Translations under genes and position numbers: made by a program
Notes under the pieces: generated by a model
Told to the model about the DNA's origin: nothing
What the model saw: only the letters and a program-made list of their open reading frames with translations
Databases searched by the model: none
In this document: piece by piece, positions 4,369 through 16,478 of the stretch
Numbering within the stretch: position 1 is the first letter of the stretch
Layout: the number at the start of each line of letters is the position of its first letter
From: an uncultured Methanomicrobiaceae archaeon
Lineage (GTDB): Archaea; Halobacteriota; Methanomicrobia; Methanomicrobiales; Methanoculleaceae
Assembly (NCBI GenBank): GCA_963826525.1
Contig: CAWGXH010000007.1
Coordinates: 1 to 29,231, forward strand
Direction: 5' to 3'
Length of the DNA stretch: 29,231 bases

Positions 4369-5375
4369 TCACTCTTTTCCTGCGGAGAACCCGCGGAACT
4401 TCTCCTGCTCGAGGAGCGCGTCGAGGAGCACGAGCGCCAGCATGCACTCCGCGACCGGCACGACCCGTACGGCGATGCAGGGGTCGTGACGGCCGGTTAT
4501 CCGTATCTTCCGCTCGTTTCCGGCCGTATCGATCGTCGCCTGCTCCTTCTCGATCGAGGGCGTGGGTTTGACGGCGATCCTGGCCACGATCGCCTGGCCG
4601 GTGCTGATCCCGCCGAGGATGCCGCCGGCGTTATTGCCGGCGAACCCATCCGGGGTGATCGGATCGTTGTTCTCGCTCCCGCGCATCCGTGCTACGGCAA
4701 AACCGGCTCCTATCTCGACGCCCTTCACCGCACCGATACCCATCAGGGCGGCGGCGATCATTGCGTCGAGCTTGCCGAAGACCGGATCGCCGAGCCCTGC
4801 CGGACACCCGGAGACGACGACCTCCACGATACCGCCGACGGAGTCGCCCTCCTGCCGTGCAGTGCGGATCGCCTCTTCCATCCCTTCGGGGGTGGTCTCT
4901 CCGCCGATCTCGGAGATCCGGCCGGCGACACCGATGCCGCACTGTTCGAGGCACTTTGCCGCAACCGCGCCTGCCGCGACGCGGGAGAGCGTCTCCCGGC
5001 CGGAACTCCGCCCGCCTCCCCGGTGATCGCGGACACCGTACTTCGCGGTGTACGAGTAGTCGGCGTGGCCGGGGCGGAAGATATCACGGAGCGCGTCGTA
5101 GTCGGCGGACTCTTGATTCCGGTTGTAGACGACAAGAGCGATCGGCGTCCCGGTCGTGACACCCTCGAAGGTGCCGGAGAGGATCTCGACTCTGTCCGCC
5201 TCTCTTCTGGGGGAGACCAGGCTGCTCGTGCCCGGCCGCCGCCGGTCGAGGTAGGGCTGGATATCCGCCTCGGAGAGCGCGATACCGGGAGGGCAGCCGT
5301 CGATGACGGCGCCGAGCGCTTTCCATGGCTCTCGCCGAAGGTCGTGACCCGAAAGTTTCTCCCAAACGTATTCAT
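4369..5375 (-). CDS. aroC: Chorismate synthase (frameshifted)
   Basis: [18 protein letters not shown] start; [40 protein letters not shown]. Confidence 0.96.
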
Positions 5376-6702
5376 TGCATCATCTCCCGCACGCTTTCCG
5401 CCTCAACAGCGATGCCGGTGAACAGGCGGAACTGCGCTGCGGCCTGGTGGACGAACATCTCGGTGCCGGGGATCGTCTCGCAGCCGATAGCCCGTGCCTC
5501 CCGGATGAGCTTCGTCTCGGGGGGCGTGTAGACGAGGTCGAAGACGGTCATCCCCCGCTCGAGCAGGTCCGCCGGAAGAGGGCTCCCCCAGCATCTTCCA
5601 TCCCGACCGGGGTCGTGTTGACGACAACGTCGGTATCGAGTCCCTCGAACTCGTCGAGCCCCCCCCATGCGCACCCGAACCGCTCCGCAAGGAGGCGGGC
5701 TTCGAGGGTCCGGTTCAGCACGGTCACCTCCATATCGAGGTCGCGGAGCGCGTAGACGGTCGCCGCCGCCGCACCTCCCGCACCGAGCACGACCGCCCTC
5801 GCTCCCCGCCGGTGCTCGAGCGGCGTCTTCACGCCGAGCCAGTCGGTGTTGAACCCGTGCATCCTTCCGCCGCACTGGACGACCGTGTTGACCGCCCCGA
5901 TGGCGGCCGCGTCCGCGTCGACCTCGTCCAGGAACGGTATGATATCCTGCTTGAACGGAATGGTGACGGAGAGCCCTCTGACGTCGAGGTCGCGTGCGAG
6001 CCTGACGATGGGTTCTATCGCGGGCCACTCGAACCGCGTGTAATAGTAGGGTAAGCCGTAGTGCTCAAAGAGCCTATTGTAGAGGGCGGGGCTTTTGCTA
6101 TGCGAGCAGGGGTTGCCGGCGATGCCGCAGATCCGGGTGAGCGGGTCGCGCTTTCGCACCGCCATAAGGTCGTCCGGGGCAAGGGAGCTTTCAGGCAGCG
6201 CCGGTGCCGCGGAGAGGACGGTTACGATCCGCTCGACGGTCTCCTCGACGCTGGACGCGCCGGTATCGATGCAGACGTCGGCGCTTGAGAGGTAGGCAAG
6301 CCTCCTCTTCCCGAGAACCTCCCGTATCTCATCCCGAAGCGGGAGCGACGTGAGCCCCGGCCGGTCGCTGCCCCGGATACGCTCCTCGATGACCGCAGGA
6401 TCGGCCGTCAGCAGAACGATCGTTCCGTTCCGGCGGAGCGTCTCCACGTTCGCCGGGTCGGTGACCGCTCCCCCGCCGGTGCTGATGACGCCGTCATATT
6501 CCCGGAGCGACGCGATAACCTCCCTCTCGAGACGCCGGAACGCCGCTTCGCCCTACCGCTCGAAGATCGCCGGGATGGCGATCCCCGCCTTCTCCTCGAT
6601 TACAGCGTCGGTATCGACGAACGGAAGGCCGAGGCGGTCGGCAAGCCGCCGCCCGACGGCCGTCTTCCCGGTGCCCCGATACCCAGTCAGGACGATCTTC
6701 AT
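5372..6702 (-). CDS. aroE: Shikimate kinase (P-loop AroK type) fused to shikimate dehydrogenase (AroE); frameshifted
   Basis: N-terminal [17 protein letters not shown]; the kinase C-half and the AroE N-half (HSKSP, SVTIPFK, IGAVNT, NTD, GAGGAA) share one reading frame (5548-6447); C-terminal [16 protein letters not shown]. Confidence 0.9.
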
Positions 6703-7968: not shown

Positions 7969-8756
7969 GCGGGCACCTCCCTCCTCGAGTAGCAGCCAAG
8001 TTCCTTCACCGCGGTCATCCTCGCGAGTTCCTCCCTCGCCTCCTCCCATCCGGGCGCGAGATCGAAGTCGATGAAGAAGACGTACCTCCCCATCCCCCGC
8101 CGGGACGGCCGCGACTCGATCCTCGTTAAGTTGATGGAGCGGACGGCAAAGACCCCGAGAAGGTCGTGGAGCAGGCCTGCCCGGTTCGCAGCGGGGTCGA
8201 CGAGGATGCTGCACCTGGTGCAGCCTGCTTCGTCCCGCGGCGTCGCCGATATCCGGACGAACCGGGTGACGTTCTGCATGCTGTTCTGCACGTCCCGCCG
8301 GATAACCGGGAGGCGGTAGATCTCCGCGGCACTCGAGGAGACGATGGCCCCCGCATCCTCGTGCTCGAGCATGGCAAGCGCGCTCGCCGCGTTGCTGCTG
8401 GTATGCACGATATCGACGCCGAGCCGGTCGAGAAACTCGCTGCACTGCTCATGCGTCTGGGGGTGAGCATAGATCACGGCAAGGTCGCCGGGATCGCACC
8501 GGGCTGCGAAATGGTGACGGATCGGCATGTACGCCTCCTCGACGATGAAGACGTTGGCATCCTGGAGCCCCCGGAGGGTCGAGCCGACACCGCCTGCTTC
8601 GCTGTTCTCGATCGGCACGAGGCCGTCCGCCGTGCCGGAGGCGACCGCCCCGATGATCTTTCCGATCGTCGGGAGAAGTTCGATATCGTCGCCGTAGAGC
8701 CGCAGGGCGAGCTCGTGGCTGAAGGTTCCGGCAGGGCCGAGTGTGAGGACGGTCAT
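7959..8756 (-). CDS. pheA: Prephenate dehydratase with C-terminal ACT domain
   Basis: LGPAGTFS, PIENSEAG, NVTRF, INLTRIESRP, YVFFID; intact ORF. Confidence 0.95.
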   Translation of the reverse strand: MTVLTLGPAGTFSHELALRLYGDDIELLPTIGKIIGAVASGTADGLVPIENSEAGGVGSTLRGLQDANVFIVEEAYMPIRHHFAARCDPGDLAVIYAHPQTHEQCSEFLDRLGVDIVHTSSNAASALAMLEHEDAGAIVSSSAAEIYRLPVIRRDVQNSMQNVTRFVRISATPRDEAGCTRCSILVDPAANRAGLLHDLLGVFAVRSINLTRIESRPSRRGMGRYVFFIDFDLAPGWEEAREELARMTAVKELGCYSRREVPAWT

Positions 8757-9577
8757 CGCGTCACCATATATCTGATAAGATCGTCGGTCTCCTCCGTGGC
8801 AGTTTTCCCGTAAGAGGCATAGTGATCGGTGTTCTTCGCGAAAAAATCGCGGAAGGCAGCAAGGTCGCCCGTCTCCACGATCGCGCGGAGGCTCTTTGCG
8901 GCATCCTCGAACGCGGCCAGCACCTCGGGCACGGCCGGGTTCAGCCGCAGCATATCGCCGTAGAGGTCGGCGTCCTGGGCGAGCAGCCGCCCGATCAGCC
9001 CCATCTGGATACGGTAGATGGGGCTCGTGAACGCGAGCGACTCCTCGACGTCCACCCCGGCACGCCGGATCGTATCGGCCGCACAGAGCGTTGCAAAGTG
9101 GGTCAGCCCCTGGATGACCGCCATCATCCGGTCGTGCTCTTCGGGCGTGGCGAAGGTCAGCACCGCCCCCTGCTCGCGGAAGACGCCGAGCAGGCGGTCG
9201 AGCGCCGCCCCGTCGCAGCGTGCGGGCGTGACGATGATCGTCTGGTTTCGAAGCGACTCCGCACCGGGCCCGAACATCGGGTGCAGCCCCACGACACCGG
9301 CCTTCGAGGCGAGCATGGCGCGGACGGGCTCCACCTTCAGCGAGGTGATGTCGCAGAGGAGCTGCTCCTCCGTAAGCACCGGGGCGATCTCGTCGATGAC
9401 GGCTATCGTCCTTCCTATCGGCACCGCGACCATGACCACGTCCGCCCGCTCTGCGACCTCGCGGTTCGAGAGAGGCGTATCACGCCCCGATACGATGACG
9501 TCCCATCCGGCGGCAGCAAAGACGGACGCAAAGAACCTCCCCATCTTTCCGGTGCCGCCGATGATCCCTGCCAGCAT
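8753..9577 (-). CDS. tyrA: Prephenate dehydrogenase
   Basis: GIIGGTGKMG, DITSLK, HPMFGP, EEHDRMMAVIQGLTH; ATG start at 9577. Confidence 0.94.
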   Translation of the reverse strand: MLAGIIGGTGKMGRFFASVFAAAGWDVIVSGRDTPLSNREVAERADVVMVAVPIGRTIAVIDEIAPVLTEEQLLCDITSLKVEPVRAMLASKAGVVGLHPMFGPGAESLRNQTIIVTPARCDGAALDRLLGVFREQGAVLTFATPEEHDRMMAVIQGLTHFATLCAADTIRRAGVDVEESLAFTSPIYRIQMGLIGRLLAQDADLYGDMLRLNPAVPEVLAAFEDAAKSLRAIVETGDLAAFRDFFAKNTDHYASYGKTATEETDDLIRYMVTR

Positions 9578-9581
9578 GCGC

Positions 9582-10568
9582 TCACTTCTCAAGGATCGTC
9601 TCCTTCACCGCTATGCCGAAGTGGCGGCCGCCCTCCGTCGCAGCCCCGAGGATCCGGTCGCCCTCTTTGAGGTCGACGACCGAGATCGCACCGCCGTCCT
9701 CGCCCACGAGGCGTATCGTCTCCGCGTTCTGGAGGATCAGGCTGACCCGGGCGTCGCCGGCCTTTGCCTCGACGAGGAGGAGCGGCCGGCGTTCAATCTT
9801 CACCCTTCCGACCACCGCGTCGGTCGTCCTGCCGCCGCGTTCCGCGACCGCGACGTGATCCCCGACCTTCAGGTCGGCGAGGTACGCCGTCTTCCCGCCG
9901 GGGAGCATGATGTAGGCATGGACGGCACCGGCATTGACCCGGAACGGCCGGGGCGCCACGTAGGGGTTCTCGAGCGTCTCCGGGTGCACGAGCAGGAAGG
10001 CGGAGGAGGTGTTGCCGACGAGCATCCCCTGCCCGTCCGCGAGGAGCGAACAGGTATCGACGCAGACCCTATCGCCCATCCCGACCGGCCGGATGCCGGT
10101 GACGGTGAAGGGAATGAGATCGGTGCTCCCGCCGGAGGATGCGATCAGCGATGCGACCTCACGGACGACGGCCGGATCGCCGGTCTTCAGCAGGATCCCG
10201 GCAATGCCGCGCTCAAGGACGGTCAGCGCGAGTTCCGCCTCCGCACGGTTCGTCACCGCCGCGACGATACGGTCCGAGGCTGCAACCAGATTCTCGAGCG
10301 GGATCACCGTCCAGTCGCCGGTGCTGACGATCACGAATCCCTTTCGTGAAAGCCTGACCGCCTCTTCTTCGCTCTCCTTGTCCACGATCGCCACCTCGAA
10401 GACATCCTCGCCGGGGACAAGATCCCCGTCGGGCGCGATGGCCGTCGTCCGTGCGAGTTCGCGGAGGTCTTCCGCACGGTCGACCATCAGAGCATCCGCA
10501 CCGCTCTCGATGGCGGTCGTGGCGAGATCTTTATCCCACGGCCTGAGATCGACCCAGAAGACCTTCAT
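9582..10568 (-). CDS. aroB': 3-dehydroquinate synthase II (archaeal AroB')
   Basis: DWTVIPLENL, GDRVCVDTCS, RPFRVNAGAVH, VGRVKIERRPL, QNAETIRL, GRHFG. Confidence 0.95.
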   Translation of the reverse strand: MKVFWVDLRPWDKDLATTAIESGADALMVDRAEDLRELARTTAIAPDGDLVPGEDVFEVAIVDKESEEEAVRLSRKGFVIVSTGDWTVIPLENLVAASDRIVAAVTNRAEAELALTVLERGIAGILLKTGDPAVVREVASLIASSGGSTDLIPFTVTGIRPVGMGDRVCVDTCSLLADGQGMLVGNTSSAFLLVHPETLENPYVAPRPFRVNAGAVHAYIMLPGGKTAYLADLKVGDHVAVAERGGRTTDAVVGRVKIERRPLLLVEAKAGDARVSLILQNAETIRLVGEDGGAISVVDLKEGDRILGAATEGGRHFGIAVKETILEK

Positions 10569-11359
10569 CCTTCCATCTCCAGCGCCCAGGCAGGGTCGAT
10601 TTCGTCATGCACCACCCGGCAGATCGCCCGGATGAACTGGCGCGGGTTATCGCGCTGGAACGCGTTCCTGCCCATGCAGACACCGGCGGATCCGGCCGCC
10701 ACGGCCTCCCCGAGGGTCGTCAGCGTCTCGATATCGCCGCCCTTCTCGCCGCCCGCGACCATCACGGGGACCGAGCATGCTTCGGTGATCCGGCGGAACG
10801 ATGCCGCATCCCCGGTGTAGTTCGTCTTGATCAGGTCGGCGCCGAGTTCTTCGGCCACCCGGACGCAGTGCCCGATCGCCTTCGGGGACGTGGGATCGAT
10901 CCCTTCGCCGCGGGGGTAGATCATGATAAGGAGCGGCATTCCCCAGCGGTTGCACTCTTTCGAGACCTGCCCCGCCGACTCAATCATCCTTGATTCGTTC
11001 GGCGCCCCGAGATTGATATGGATCGAGACCGCATCCGCACCGAGGGCGACCGCCTCCTCGACGGTGCAGACGAGCACTTTGTCGTTCGGGTCGGGGTTCA
11101 TCGAGGTGCTCGCCGAGAGATGGACGATGAGCCCGATATCCCGTCCGTGCTTCCGGTGGCCGCCCTTCACCATCCCCTTATGGAGGACGATGGCATTCGC
11201 ACCCGCTTCGCTGACCTCGGAGACGATCTCCGTCATGTTGCGGAGCCCCTCGATCTGCCCGAGCGTGAACCCGTGATCCATGGGGATGATCACCGATCTG
11301 CCCGTATTCCGGTTCATGATTCGTTCAAGACGTATCTCTTTTCCTATCATCTCTCTCAC
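10565..11359 (-). CDS. 2-amino-3,7-dideoxy-D-threo-hept-6-ulosonate (ADH) synthase / DhnA-type class I aldolase, copy 2
   Basis: PMDHG, HLSAST, GADAVSIHIN, YPRG, ELGADLIKT (Schiff-base Lys), GRNAFQ; start at 11359 or 11350. Confidence 0.9.
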   Translation of the reverse strand: MREMIGKEIRLERIMNRNTGRSVIIPMDHGFTLGQIEGLRNMTEIVSEVSEAGANAIVLHKGMVKGGHRKHGRDIGLIVHLSASTSMNPDPNDKVLVCTVEEAVALGADAVSIHINLGAPNESRMIESAGQVSKECNRWGMPLLIMIYPRGEGIDPTSPKAIGHCVRVAEELGADLIKTNYTGDAASFRRITEACSVPVMVAGGEKGGDIETLTTLGEAVAAGSAGVCMGRNAFQRDNPRQFIRAICRVVHDEIDPAWALEMEG

Positions 11360-12146
11360 GCCCTCAGGATCTCAATTGCTTCGTCTGCCGGTTTTCCTTC
11401 GTGTACAATGAGCGCCGCGGCCCGCATCAGTTTCTCCGGAGCGGGGTGCTGGAACGCATTCCTCCCGATGGAGATGCCGGCAGCGCCGCCCTCCATCGCC
11501 CCCTCGATCAGTTCGAGGATGGCCATATCGTCGGTCTTCGACCCGCCGGCGACGACCACCGGAACCGGGCACCCCCGCGTGACCTCGCGGAAACTGTCGG
11601 GGTCGCCGGTGTAGACGGTCTTGACGATATCGGCGCCGAGCTCCGCCGCCACCCGGGCGGCGAGTTTGACGTGTTCGACGTCGTGCTCGTCCGCGATCTT
11701 CTGCCCCGGGGGTACATCATCGCAAGCAGCGGCATCCCCCACTCCATGCACTCGATCGCCACCCGGCCGAGGTCTTCGAGCATCTTGGCCTCCGAGTTCG
11801 CACCGACATTGATATGCACCGAGACGCCGTCCGCCCCCATCTTGAGGGCGTTCGTGACGGTATTGACGAGCACCTTCTCGTTCGGGTCGGGTCCGACGGC
11901 GGTGCTCGCCGAGAGGTGGAGGATGAGCCCGACATCTCTGCCGTGCCGCCGGTGACCATGCAGGGCAAGCCCCATATGCCCGATCACCACGTTTGCTCCG
12001 CCCCCCGCCACGAGGTCGATGGTCTTTCCGAGGTCAATCAGTCCCGGGATTGGCCCGACCGTAACACCGTGATCCATCGGTACGATGATGGTCTTTCCGG
12101 TATTACAATCCATGATACGTTCCATGCGAATTTCTTTTCCTCTCAT
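11356..12146 (-). CDS. ADH synthase / DhnA-type class I aldolase, copy 1 (frameshift near 11710)
   Basis: [27 protein letters not shown] / [15 protein letters not shown]; SD-like GAGGAG 8 nt before the ATG. Confidence 0.9.
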
Positions 12147-12247
12147 AGTCAGATACTCCTCATCCGGCACGTCAGCGATTCTGGTGGAGAATCAGCTTCA
12201 GTTCCGGGGATAATAGTTAAAGGTGCTAAAAAAGCGGAGATAATTGC

Positions 12248-12285
12248 AAAAAGGCAGGCACCATCCGGTAATGGAATGAACCTGC
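12248..12285 (-). terminator. Candidate attenuator terminator in the aro operon leader: hairpin plus U5 tract
   Basis: Minus strand GCAGG-UUCAUU-CCAU-UACCGG-AUGG-UG-CCUGC-C-UUUUU; a second U6 tract follows at 12228-12233. Confidence 0.5.
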
Positions 12286-12330
12286 GGAAGAAGTGCGTCG
12301 CTTTGACCTGCACGGCGGATGGATCCTTCG

Positions 12331-12366
12331 CTACCAGTGATAAAAGCATTCACCGGCAAAAAACAT
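12331..12366 (-). CDS. Putative aromatic leader peptide MFFAGECFYHW
   Basis: ATG TTT TTT GCC GGT GAA TGC TTT TAT CAC TGG TAG read by hand; 5 of 11 codons are Phe/Tyr/Trp; lies upstream of the aromatic biosynthesis operon. Confidence 0.6.
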   Translation of the reverse strand: MFFAGECFYHW

Positions 12367-12375
12367 TCACCACGC

Positions 12376-12409
12376 ATTGATAGTATCATATTTCGTCAAT
12401 CTATAAAAA
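12376..12409 (-). promoter_or_regulatory. Putative TATA box of the aro operon with adjacent palindromes
   Basis: TTTTTATA on the minus strand at 12409-12402 predicts a start site near 12378; palindrome TGATAgTATCA at 12378-12388; ATTGA-N15-TCAAT at 12376-12400. Confidence 0.5.
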
Positions 12410-12511
12410 GGTAAGCCCGCAGGATGAGAATTGGCGAGGGGAGAAGGGACACGACCCGGCAGATATCGACGCTACTCTATTATTTCCGGAAAAGAACGCT
12501 GCTTCTGCCGA

Positions 12512-13008
12512 TCACTTCCGGATCTTCTTAAAGGAGATGACATCGCCGACGGTCGTCGCCATTCTGCCGGCGCCGCGGGACTCGGTCTCGTCGGCCGCGG
12601 AGTCGATCAGCTTGATGCCGAGCGCCCGCTCGATCTTTTTCCGGACAGCGTCTTCCGGAATGAGATCGCCCTTCTCGATCTTCTTGATCAGGATCTCACG
12701 CTCTTTCGTCGCATGCGCAAGATCCAGCGTCGACCATTCCTTCTCTTCCCGGGCAGCGCGAATCCGTTCGCGGTAGTCGTCGACGATATCGCCCTCGATC
12801 AGGTCAAAGACATCCCGCGGCCTCCTCCGGGCTGCGGCGTCGAGGCCGCCGGTGCTCCGGGCTTCCGCACAGGAACGCCGCCTCGCCGTGATTGCTGGAC
12901 TTCCTTACCGTATTTTGCACATTTGATGCACACACAGAGTTCTGCACCTTCAACCTGGACTGTCTTAGACGGTCCGTGGATAGGAGCGCCGCATAATTCA
13001 CATTGCAT
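12512..13008 (-). CDS. Archaeal multiprotein bridging factor aMBF1 (Zn ribbon plus HTH); frameshift near 12820
   Basis: MQCELCG..VCIKCAKYG; second frame DIVDDYRERIRAAREEKEWSTLDLAHA..IKKIEKGDLIPE..TTVGDVISFKKIRK*; divergent from pan. Confidence 0.9.
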
Positions 13009-13042
13009 GGTTCTCGCAAAGAACTTTATATCCATTTTACCC

Positions 13043-13065: not shown

Positions 13066-14302
13066 ATGGGAGATATTGCTCGGCAAGCACCTGACAAGGA
13101 TACCGGTGAAGATCTTTACCAGTACCTGCTTGAACGGATAACTAACCTCGAAAACCGAAATCTGGGCTGCGGGAGCAGTTCCGGCAGATGGAATCTGAAA
13201 AACGCTATATCGAAACCCAGAAGATCCGGTACAAGCGTGAGCTCCGGAAGCTCAAGAGCGAGATCGAACAACTGCGGAGCCCTCCTCTCGTTATCGGGAC
13301 GGTCACCGACGTCGTTGACAACAACCGGGTCATCGTGCGGAGCAGCGCTGGTCCACGATTCCTCGTCCGCACATCGCAACTCATCGATCCCGATCTCCTC
13401 AAGCCGGGTGTGCGGTGTACCTTAAACCAGCAGTCTCTCGCCATCGTCGACGTCCTCCCCACGAGTTACGACTCGCAGGTCTACGGTATGGAGCTGATCG
13501 AGTCCCCTGACGAGCGCTACGAGAATATCGGCGGCCTTGAGCCGCAGATCGTGGAGATCCAGGAAGCGGTCGAGCTCCCGCTGACAAAGCCCCATCTCTT
13601 CGAGCAGATCGGCATCTCGCCGCCGAAGGGCGTCCTCCTCTACGGCCCGCCCGGAACCGGGAAGACGCTGCTCGCGCGGGCGGTCGCGCACCAGACGAAC
13701 GCGCACTTCCTCCGTGTCGTCGGTTCGGAGCTCGTGCAGAAGTACATCGGCGAGGGGCGCGGCTCGTGCGCGAACTCTTCGAGCTTGCCAAACAGAAAGC
13801 GCCGTCGATCATCTTCATCGACGAGATCGATGCGATCGGTGCGCACCGGAACGATTCGACGACCTCGGGAGACCGCGAGGTGCAGCGGACGCTCATGCAG
13901 CTCCTCGCCGAGATGGACGGGTTCGAGAACCGCGGCGACGTCAAGATCATCGGCGCCACGAACCGGATCGATATCCTGGATCGCGCCCTCCTCCGGCCGG
14001 GTCGGTTCGACCGGATCATCGAGATTCCGCTCCCCGACTTCCACGGACGGCTGTCAATCATGAAGATCCACACGAAGGGCATGAACCTCGGCGGAAACGT
14101 CGACCTTGCGGAGGTCGCCCGCCTCACCGAAGGAAAGAACGGTGCCGACCTTCGGGCGGTCTGCATGGAAGCGGATATGCTCGCGATCCGGAGCGAGCAC
14201 GAGACCGTCACGCAGGACGACTTCATGAAGGCGATCGACAAACTCGCGCTCGACTTCGACAAGCACCATATCAACTCCTCATATGGCGCGATGTTCGCCT
14301 GA
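13066..14302 (+). CDS. pan: Proteasome-activating nucleotidase, copy 1 (frameshifts near 13165 and 13760)
   Basis: N-terminal coiled coil, [48 protein letters not shown]; ends MFA*; T-tract follows at about 14313-14319. Confidence 0.95.

Positions 14303-15311: not shown

Positions 15312-16478
<1,167 letters not shown>

Follow-up and report, generated by a model that had tools for sequence, protein, structure and literature searches.

On the minus strand of a 29,231-nt archaeal contig (CAWGXH010000007.1, hereafter the window), an earlier note made from the sequence alone had described a trp-type transcription attenuator at 12322-12228. On that strand a TATA-like box (12409-12402) precedes the stretch, and a tandem pair of ADH-synthase genes, the first with its ATG at 12146, follows it. 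We identified this stretch as the middle of a ~230-nt 5′ leader that precedes the aromatic amino-acid operon of a Methanomicrobiales archaeon. A conserved architecture, two overlapping reading frames, a codon bias, a covarying helix (P1) and pairing of the Shine-Dalgarno (SD) sequence of the ADH-synthase gene were computed for this leader. With a probability of about 0.65, it is a ribosome-mediated sensor of aromatic amino acids that would control the operon by unmasking of the SD, by termination at U-tracts, or by both. The coding leader is new, as no family, Rfam model or paper in the literature searched describes it.

In a first-round search the leader was present in 39 of 41 related genomes, and the block covering a short upstream open reading frame (uORF) was the only one conserved over six families (80-93% identity); the hairpins of the earlier note are not conserved. 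Within Methanomicrobiales, 118 of 201 genomes, spread over 32 of 40 genera, contain a core pattern, whose reversed control hit 1 of 201. In the rest of the phylum, 2 of 333 genomes matched the pattern; one of these two matches was inspected (G481) and proved to be a chance match inside an unrelated open reading frame (ORF). A one-genome-per-species scan of bacteria and archaea gave 80 inspected loci, 74 of them with the uORF. The titles of 73 of the 74 are of Methanomicrobiales type (Methanoculleus, Methanolinea, Methanoregulaceae, Methanocalculus, Methanospirillum, Methanomicrobiaceae, Methanomicrobiales) or read ‘Methanobacteriota archaeon’ without placement. The remaining one, a 2.5-kb contig titled as a Bacillota metagenome-assembled genome (L117), carries a complete Methanoculleus-type promoter and uORF and is evidently mis-binned. 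Six bacterial matches of the same scan were discarded as chance matches, having neither the ATG nor the context. The second round comprised 60 loci, 53 of which fitted an expression for the ATG and the core; L067-L070, L080, L090 and L102 were dropped before counting. In total we obtained 84 leaders, or 82 distinct ones with the window set aside, and counts over 72, 78 or 79 leaders omit those in which no ADH-synthase start or U-run was recognisable.

The conserved part of the leader begins with a promoter and a start codon (AUG1). In 75 of the 82 leaders a TATA-like heptamer begins 28-34 nt (mode 31) upstream of the AUG, a spacing that would imply a leaderless or near-leaderless transcript; a scan for sigma-70 promoters and bacterial terminators was uninformative, the host being archaeal. 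The three bases after AUG1 vary among the 82 leaders, in covariation with their helix partners. The reading frame set by AUG1 (frame 0) encodes a uORF of 15 codons. Of 31 first-round leaders, 30 have it intact, both other copies from the window's assembly among them, and so do all 82 distinct leaders, with the consensus M-x-G-E-C-F-F-A-G-E-x-F-Y. Among these 13 conserved residues are three Phe and one Tyr, an enrichment in the amino acids whose operon follows. A frame-0 stop lies at most five codons past Tyr13 in 81 of 82 leaders, against 0/82 and 17/81 for the other two frames, and in 65 leaders the distance is exactly two codons, with 46 different tails and all three stop codons in use. Such placement of the stop despite the diversity of the tails argues for translation over a purely structural RNA. 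In the window a single C is absent between 12358 and 12357, which breaks frame 0 and fuses it to frame +1. The 30 other first-round leaders read ...ATGTTTTTTC/TGCCGG... here, with C at the gap site in 28 and a seventh T in two (L005, L027). This absence is probably an assembly error, given the load of likely indel errors in the contig (see below). The TAG that the earlier note took for a leader stop belongs to the uORF of the relatives, which is broken in the window, and the peptide MFFAGECFYHW (ATG 12366) proposed there is an out-of-register remnant of frame 0.

A second reading frame extends well past the end of the first. Frame +1 is open from base 2 for 41-77 codons in 82/82 leaders. Across nucleotides 49-137, 80 of 82 leaders have no stop in this frame, whereas 29 and 12 are free of stops in the two others; for 37 dissimilar leaders the numbers are 35, 19 and 9. 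In the last 45 nt of the long ORF the three sub-frames hold 0, 10 and 70 stops. The frame ends 32-105 nt (median 46.5) before the ADH-synthase ATG, or 51 nt in the window. In all 82 leaders, between 4 and 11 (median 7) of its last 15 codons are for Phe, Tyr or Trp, and the tail is conserved in this aromatic content only, neither in sequence nor in length. Its T-rich cluster consists of tandem x-Tyr-Phe codon units in one open frame, and in lineages that lack the nucleotide pattern the cluster lies inside a short ORF ending, for example, in ...VFYRFFWYF or ...FGFFFGFSYFFSYYFWFRQ directly before the stop. An interpretation of the cluster as a U-tract terminator alone was dropped, the +1 frame being open and aromatic-rich in every leader. 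Tail codons also include the motif TATCG[CT]T (window 12242-12234), which was observed in 39 of 83 leaders, those with it belonging to families f1, f2, f3, f5 and f6 (no reverse complements; shuffle mean 2.4), and which in frame +1 encodes Tyr-Arg and then Tyr or Phe, so that an Arg recurs between the aromatic codons of the tail.

Phe and Tyr are written in an unusual way in the long ORF, with TTT:TTC at 290:106 and TAT:TAC at 224:25, as compared to 6:62 and 5:59 in 29 ADH-synthase ORFs. The reference was recomputed from ADH-synthase frames only, as an earlier set possibly included spurious ORFs, and the outcome was the same. The preference for T-ending over C-ending codons is specific to Phe (114:28) and Tyr (74:5) and is not shared by Cys (2:31), Asn (7:25) or Ser-AGY (9:20), which indicates selection for U-richness as such. 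Slow wobble decoding is one role that it could have, U-tract termination signals are another, and the two may be combined. Runs of at least four T number 244 on the sense strand, as against 33 runs of at least four A (shuffles 72 ± 7), and most of them begin 60-119 nt past the uORF stop. That the long ORF is instead a small aromatic-rich protein (~45-75 residues) with a function of its own and no regulation in cis would fit a frame that is open in 82/82 leaders and contiguous in some genera, as well as the conserved N-terminal M-x-G-E-C motif. We consider it unlikely, since the mid-part of the ORF shows almost no constraint at the amino-acid level, conservation in the tail is limited to its aromatic content, the codons chosen for Phe and Tyr are rare in the genome, and the ORF invariably ends at the short distance from ADH synthase given above, beside the SD-pairing hairpin. 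Searches of the long ORF against Pfam and NCBIfam gave no family match, and searches of protein collections with the window's fused ORF and a naturally contiguous ORF, confined to proteins of near length, gave no candidate.

The leader also has one conserved long-range helix. RNAalifold consensus folds of two clades pair bases 2-14 with a segment 9-23 nt past the uORF stop. This duplex, P1, is present in 83/83 leaders (the 82 distinct ones and the window), and the partners of bases 4-6 covary (C:G or U:A/U:G; G:C/G:U or A:U; U:G/U:A, G:C or A:U). Among 21 segment pairs scanned in 72 leaders, P1 was the sole significant one, with a median z of -1.76 and 97% of the leaders below zero, and all other long-range pairs were at background. 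When arms were swapped between lineages, the diagonal interaction amounted to -1.66 kcal/mol and was matched by none of 2000 permutations, a significance inflated by kinship of the leaders; the lineage's own arm was best or tied in 47 of 80. A smaller hairpin within the uORF, P2, is conserved as a hairpin, with a register that varies among genera.

Bases 1-39 of the leader are nearly invariant, fourfold-degenerate sites included. Together with the covariation of P1 and with conserved unpaired bases that, in our own reading, resemble an aptamer core, this would suit a riboswitch-like RNA in which the first ~70 nt (P1, P2 and unpaired U-rich bases) bind a ligand or a protein and the frames are incidental. 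The stop placement described above speaks against such an RNA, as do the pairs of the AUG in P1, which are frozen whereas the adjoining pairs covary. We also read the invariant ‘silent’ sites of frame 0 as second codon positions of frame +1, and several variable first positions of frame 0 as synonymous in frame +1 (CCN, UCN, GCY, GUY). The aromatic tail and its codon bias would go unexplained, and a cmscan of 11900-12800 against Rfam at E up to 10 returned a single match, to a Giardia small nuclear RNA model (E 7.5), which is a chance match. We regard this explanation as very unlikely.

Downstream of the long ORF, the folding of the leader involves the start of the ADH-synthase gene. The spacer between the long-ORF stop and the ADH-synthase ATG has a fold z below zero in 77 of 78 leaders (median -1.54), and in the window the 5′ arm of the spacer hairpin reaches into the end of the long ORF, overlapping its final codons and stop. 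An SD could be identified in 69 leaders, and in 58 of them at least 60% of it is paired in the predicted minimum free energy (MFE) fold, with partner sequences that are lineage-specific. The arm pairing with the SD is located at a median of +4 to +8 nt from the long-ORF stop, and in 46 of 56 leaders it begins where a ribosome near the end of the ORF could reach it. In a genus consensus fold, ACUUCUU (12293-12284), just upstream of the terminator hairpin of the earlier note, pairs over ~130 nt with GAGGAGU (12161-12155); this would be a second possible route to masking of the SD.

These features suggest the following mechanism for a sensor of aromatic amino acids. Transcription would start at or beside the invariant AUG (12377). 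Ribosomes in frame 0 would make the 15-residue peptide and stop at 12333-12331, while those in frame +1 would continue for ~35 further codons to the tail, where Phe, Tyr and Trp occur as rare U-rich TTT/TAT codons, and progress through the tail would report the supply of charged aromatic tRNA. A ribosome held on the tail, or translating it, would keep the SD hairpin of ADH synthase open, and may also shield the U-runs from archaeal U-tract/aCPSF1 termination. Scarcity of aromatic amino acids would lead to expression of the operon. At good supply, ribosomes would leave quickly, P1 would form between the 5′ end and the post-stop segment, the SD hairpin would close and expression would fall. The transcription start, translation of the leader, a frameshift, the direction of regulation and any termination are what we infer from the computed features.

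The attenuator of the earlier note requires a different set of structures. It held that a CCAUCCG/CGGAUGG antiterminator excludes a GCAGG..CCUGC terminator hairpin, that transcripts end at the U5 and U6 tracts behind it, and that the choice is set by a ribosome stalling in the uORF or terminating at its stop. The bases named are all present, with CCAUCCG at 12322-12316, CGGAUGG at 12267-12261, GCAGG 12285-12281 opposite CCUGC 12258-12254, CCAU 12274-12271 opposite AUGG 12264-12261, the small hairpin at 12313-12293, U5 at 12252-12248 and U6 at 12233-12228, and CCAUCCG begins at the ninth base past the TAG (12333-12331). As only one base separates CGGAUGG from the 3′ arm, the two helices should not be able to coexist sterically, and their energies in the window are close (-24.8 kcal/mol for the MFE fold with the terminator, -23.6 kcal/mol with the antiterminator forced). 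The window's own duplex has a z of -1.75, in L031 (the other copy in the assembly) the pairing belongs to the MFE fold with a ribosome on the Phe/Tyr codons, and in our own reading G002 offers a shifted CUCUCCG/CGGAGGG complement. The mutually exclusive pairings are nevertheless neither conserved nor above chance. Complements of at least 7 nt between the 30 nt past the stop and the next 73 nt appeared in 100 of 1000 shuffles, and the fold z was -0.80 for 12222-12330 and -1.84 for the whole leader. In the unconstrained window fold CCAUCCGC pairs with the upstream GCGUGGUG at the RNA 5′ end, not with CGGAUGG, and the sole conserved long-range helix, P1, likewise pairs the CCAUCCG region with the 5′ end of the uORF. 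In an alignment of six sequences, the antiterminator and the terminator hairpin each had 0 compensatory pairs and no excess over shuffles, and both were broken in register in G002 and G003. A generalised antiterminator gave a median z of -0.27, with 4 of 78 leaders below -1.64, and the segment scan of 72 leaders also gave -0.27.

Folds of 16 leaders under ribosome masks revealed no consistent switch, since the U-run hairpins mostly form in every state. In place of the U5 after the hairpin, the three closest relatives have CUGUUUGC, CUAUUUGC and CUGUCUGC. The two U-tracts of the window are Phe codons within the conserved +1 ORF, U5 lying in CCT TTT TGC (12254-12246) and U6 being TTT TTT (Phe-Phe). 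A terminating ribosome was expected to cover CCAUCCG; by our own arithmetic the footprint of 27 nt given for archaeal ribosomes in PMC7261190 reaches ~9 nt past the stop, that is, to the first C only. In 11 spacer folds inspected, no U-tract was seen after the SD-pairing hairpin that lies between the long-ORF stop and the gene. Comparison thus strongly backs the idea of a translated, aromatic-sensing leader and lends no support to the hairpin geometry; the earlier note had real bases and the right kind of biology with the wrong anatomy, and we find a trp-type attenuator of this design very unlikely.

How ribosomes would reach frame +1 can be narrowed to two routes, a +1 slip on UUU-UUC or initiation at a conserved GUG, of which those at bases 8 and 26 are invariant and in frame. 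Bases 13-22 read TGTTTTTTCG in 65 of 82 leaders, and YUU UUY is kept in every variant (82/82). On YUU-UUY, the tRNA in the P site could re-pair one base forward with a Phe codon waiting in the A site, and the leaders combine overlapping 0 and +1 frames with an early stop in the former and an open reading frame in the latter, as is typical of +1 frameshifting. One uninterrupted ORF leads from AUG1 (MCGE..) into the aromatic tail, and the U-run is lacking, in 5/5 informative genomes of genus g16 (the contiguity routine gave no call for a sixth, G037), in 2/2 of g12, and in one clear case of g19 (G049), where five other genomes examined had no convincing leader. These genera are nested in families whose remaining genera show the two-frame form, and this comparative signature suggests a +1 frameshift elsewhere. 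The one-base deletion in the window produces exactly the +1 fusion.

We put forward only tentatively, and with more doubt than belief, that the leader in most Methanomicrobiales is a phenylalanine-sensing programmed +1 frameshift device. In such a device the ribosome would travel from the 5′-terminal AUG to UUU-UUC. With ample Phe-tRNA it would remain in frame and stop nine codons on, P1 would form, and the remainder of the leader would stay untranslated, with the SD hairpin closed and naked U-runs exposed to aCPSF1/FttA termination. With a ‘hungry’ UUC the peptidyl-tRNA-Phe would slip +1 on the U-run, and the slipped ribosome would follow the polymerase for ~35 more codons into the Phe/Tyr/Trp tail; stalled there, it would cover the U-tracts and open the SD hairpin, turning the operon on. 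According to a 2021 review (PMC8211752), the only demonstrated frameshift in archaeal cellular genes is a -1 event in fucA1, and ‘hungry’ shifting under tRNA limitation is described there. If true, the device would give archaeal cellular genes their first regulatory +1 frameshift.

Termination at the U-runs themselves may occur in the leader without the hairpin logic of the earlier note. Within a stretch of a few tens of bases, 75 of 79 leaders have at least two runs of four or more T, and PMC8716108 reports two U4 tracts as the minimal element for efficient aCPSF1 binding in Methanococcus maripaludis. RNA data were available as assembled contigs of biogas metatranscriptomes matching a relative (L040), a form from which neither the level of an RNA nor its start or end can be read. 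Two of them, which come from two studies, cover the leader as far as 1631/1632 of L040, where they end directly past UAUUUUA, and this weak hint, along with the choice of the rare TTT/TAT codons, keeps U-tract termination among the possible modes of control.

A number of observations weigh against the sensor as proposed. Position 1632 is also the first strain-variable column of L040, so that the contig ends are ambiguous; another RNA-library contig reads through the leader cluster into the gene, and a contig of run X2 (L040 1300-1522) begins in the intergenic region upstream, crosses the predicted promoter and enters the uORF, which means that it stems either from DNA in the library or from transcription continuing out of the upstream gene. 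Codon periodicity is moderate in the uORF (6, 3 and 8 of 12 sites variable) and weak in the middle of the +1 ORF in the sister genus (15/29, 16/29 and 20/30), Phe6 or Phe12 is replaced by Leu in some lineages, and the conservation of bases 1-39 exceeds the needs of a simple peptide of regulatory codons. An in-frame ATG past the frame-0 stop is present in just 13 of 82 leaders, and most lineages have no conserved +1 start. The enrichment of the SD-pairing arm near the long-ORF stop (start at -12 to +14 in 46 of 56 leaders) is a modest excess over the ~58% expected. A scan of the window's genome (G000) for leaders of like build serving other amino acids returned 14 candidates, of which two are this leader and the rest are unconvincing. 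The T-rich cluster scores as TATA-like at a median of 6.7, compared with 7.9 for real promoters and 4.6 for the control, and its best box begins 50-79 nt before the ATG in 50 of 78 leaders, which makes a second promoter possible.

This last point also favours a division of the locus into two transcription units, in which the uORF RNA would end in the T-rich cluster and the cluster would be the TATA box of ADH synthase. Three RNA runs have no cover in L040 at 1640-1673 and cover again before the gene, a gap that is not evidence in itself. For the related proposal of a repressor operator at the start site, we note a direct repeat, GGTGAATG(Y)TTTT in our own reading, over the predicted start. A promoter would not require tandem x-Tyr-Phe codon units in one open frame, and the contig reading into the gene spans the cluster; an RNA, but not a DNA operator, would show the covariation of P1 with a downstream segment, and the second repeat is degenerate in the largest genus. 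We judge either version as improbable as the trp-type attenuator above.

Ribosome-mediated attenuation of amino-acid operons is a textbook bacterial mechanism, exemplified by the leader-peptide transcription attenuators of Escherichia coli trp, pheA and his, and archaea couple transcription and translation. Like these leaders, the sensor proposed here has a short ORF upstream of a biosynthetic operon that is enriched in codons for the operon's own amino acids, and its 5′ segment pairs with a segment past the leader stop as in the 1:2 pairing of trp. Unlike them, it lacks both a conserved antiterminator and a conserved terminator hairpin with a U-tract past the sensing codons. Its U-runs are themselves sensing codons, a leaderless transcript is predicted, two frames overlap, and the host is archaeal. 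Autoregulatory +1 frameshift sites are known from prfB (CUU-UGA-C) and Ty1 (CUU-AGG-C), and lineages related to those with shifted prfB have a contiguous gene lacking the shift site. The contiguous ORFs in some Methanomicrobiales genera parallel the latter. In the present leader, however, the slow codon would be a tRNA-starved (‘hungry’) sense codon for Phe and not a stop or a rare Arg codon, and the product would be a regulatory leader. With prfB, Ty1 and antizyme, the last named as a frameshift case in PMC8211752, it shares a short 0-frame ORF that ends soon past a site of possible +1 P-site re-pairing (YUU-U), where a slow A-site codon is possible.

Termination in archaea depends on U-tracts and aCPSF1 (FttA) and not on hairpins, according to PMC8716108, and the repeated U-runs of the leader resemble such terminators, with the difference that they lie inside a reading frame of a 5′ leader and not at a gene end. 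FttA has been proposed to police the coupling of transcription and translation (PMC11616081, in a Nature 2024 discussion), which would open a hairpin-free route for a ribosome to control termination. The closest likeness for SD unmasking is the mycobacterial ‘Cys ribulon’, in which ribosomes stalled on leaderless poly-Cys ORFs unmask the next gene's ribosome-binding site (bioRxiv 10.1101/834739). Both have a cognate-rich short ORF with a 5′-AUG, leaderless by prediction in our case, as first ORF of a biosynthetic operon; RNA structure sequesters the next ribosome-binding site there and is predicted to do so in the present leader. The present leader differs in being archaeal, in its aromatic residues instead of Cys, in its two frames with a conserved U-run and in its additional covarying 5′ helix, and it is described here from sequence and predicted folds.

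Full-text literature searches found no archaeal ribosome-mediated attenuator of amino-acid operons and no mention of the uORF peptide core. If the sensor is real, it would be the first leader-peptide attenuator described in archaea within the literature searched, and it would bear on the question if an archaeal polymerase or a downstream start site can be under the control of a ribosome, and by what means. A ~230-nt leader in 32 of 40 sampled genera of one order offers a compact, mutable test case for leaderless initiation on a regulatory ORF, for tRNA sensing by rare U-rich codons and for a possible regulated +1 frameshift, and would supply methanogen engineering with a native switch responsive to aromatic amino acids. 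For annotation, a stretch left as ‘intergenic’ in these genomes is predicted to be coding. The features of the leader are summarized in Table 1.

Table 1. Position of leader features and of the operon start in the window
Feature	Position	Strand	Basis or remark
TATA-like box TTTTTATA, leader promoter	12402..12409	-	Sequence read; conserved spacing to AUG
AUG1, start codon at predicted 5′ transcript end	12375..12377	-	A, T and G invariant in 82/82 leaders
Frame-0 uORF of relatives, M-R-G-E-C-F-F-A-G-E-C-F-Y-H-W, stop TAG 12333-12331	12331..12377	-	Broken in window
Long leader ORF, 59 codons, MRGECFLPVNAF...CLPFCNYLRFFSTFNYYPRN, stop TGA 12200-12198	12198..12377	-	Frame +1 of relatives, joined to AUG1 by window deletion
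Helix P1, 5′ arm UGCGUGGUGAAUG	12364..12376	-	RNAalifold in two clades; duplex scan; swap test
Helix P1, 3′ arm CAUCCGCCGUGCA	12309..12321	-	As 5′ arm; overlaps CCAUCCG of earlier note
U-run encoding Phe-Phe (relatives: UGU UUU UUC), with YUU UUY as candidate +1 shift site	12358..12363	-	Conservation
Hairpin P2 in uORF, GCCGGUGA 12357-12350 with UCACUGGU 12340-12333, including frame-0 stop	12333..12357	-	Window MFE fold and both clade consensus folds
Antiterminator 5′ segment of earlier note, CCAUCCG	12316..12322	-	Present; pairing not conserved
Terminator hairpin of earlier note, containing CGGAUGG 12267-12261	12254..12285	-	Forms in window fold; inside +1 ORF, codons ...P-Q-V-H-S-I-T-G-W-C-L-P
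Aromatic-rich tail, W-C-L-P-F-C-N-Y-L-R-F-F-S-T-F-N-Y-Y-P-R-N	12201..12263	-	Holds U5 and U6 of earlier note
Spacer hairpin, CCGG 12207-12204 with CCGG 12167-12164	12164..12207	-	Window fold and genus consensus fold
SD GAGGAG 12161-12156 and ATG 12146-12144 of first ADH-synthase gene	12144..12161	-	Sequence read
Controlled operon start: ADH synthase copy 1 (frameshifted), ADH synthase copy 2, 3-dehydroquinate synthase II, prephenate dehydrogenase	8753..12146	-	NCBIfam matches

At 29 kb, the window repeats part of a 360-kb contig (C5) of the same assembly, G000. The region occurs there in three copies, on C5 (~198075-198502), on C6 (12099-12526) and on C7, the window. C5 and C6 are 99.2% identical and the window is ~94.7% identical to both; the small contigs C6 and C7 look like redundant strain variants of part of C5. 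Over 3.4 kb, the window has 12-13 gap positions relative to its relatives, which among themselves differ by 0-3. Several conserved genes in the window are split by frameshifts (11356-12146, 12514-13035, 13188-14302, 15312-16320 and 5372-6447), namely ADH synthase copy 1, an MBF1-like gene, two PAN-type AAA ATPases and shikimate kinase/dehydrogenase, and together with the gap load this points to indel errors in the contig.

Further downstream in the operon, prephenate dehydratase, EPSP synthase and shikimate kinase/dehydrogenase were identified by NCBIfam matches. At three trpE loci (L103-L105, from G001, G000 and G014), trpE is located behind a TrpB-like gene and is internal to an operon, and no Trp-rich leader was seen before it. 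The short overlap of the TrpB-like gene and trpE encodes MPVDW(T/R)(A/G)LEES.. in two of these three genomes. The tandem ADH-synthase paralogues (window 10565-12146) share ~51-55% identity and stand behind the leader in most genera examined. Most g19 loci have one ADH-synthase copy in another context, for instance L195, where it lies directly behind an ABC-ATPase-like gene without the leader.

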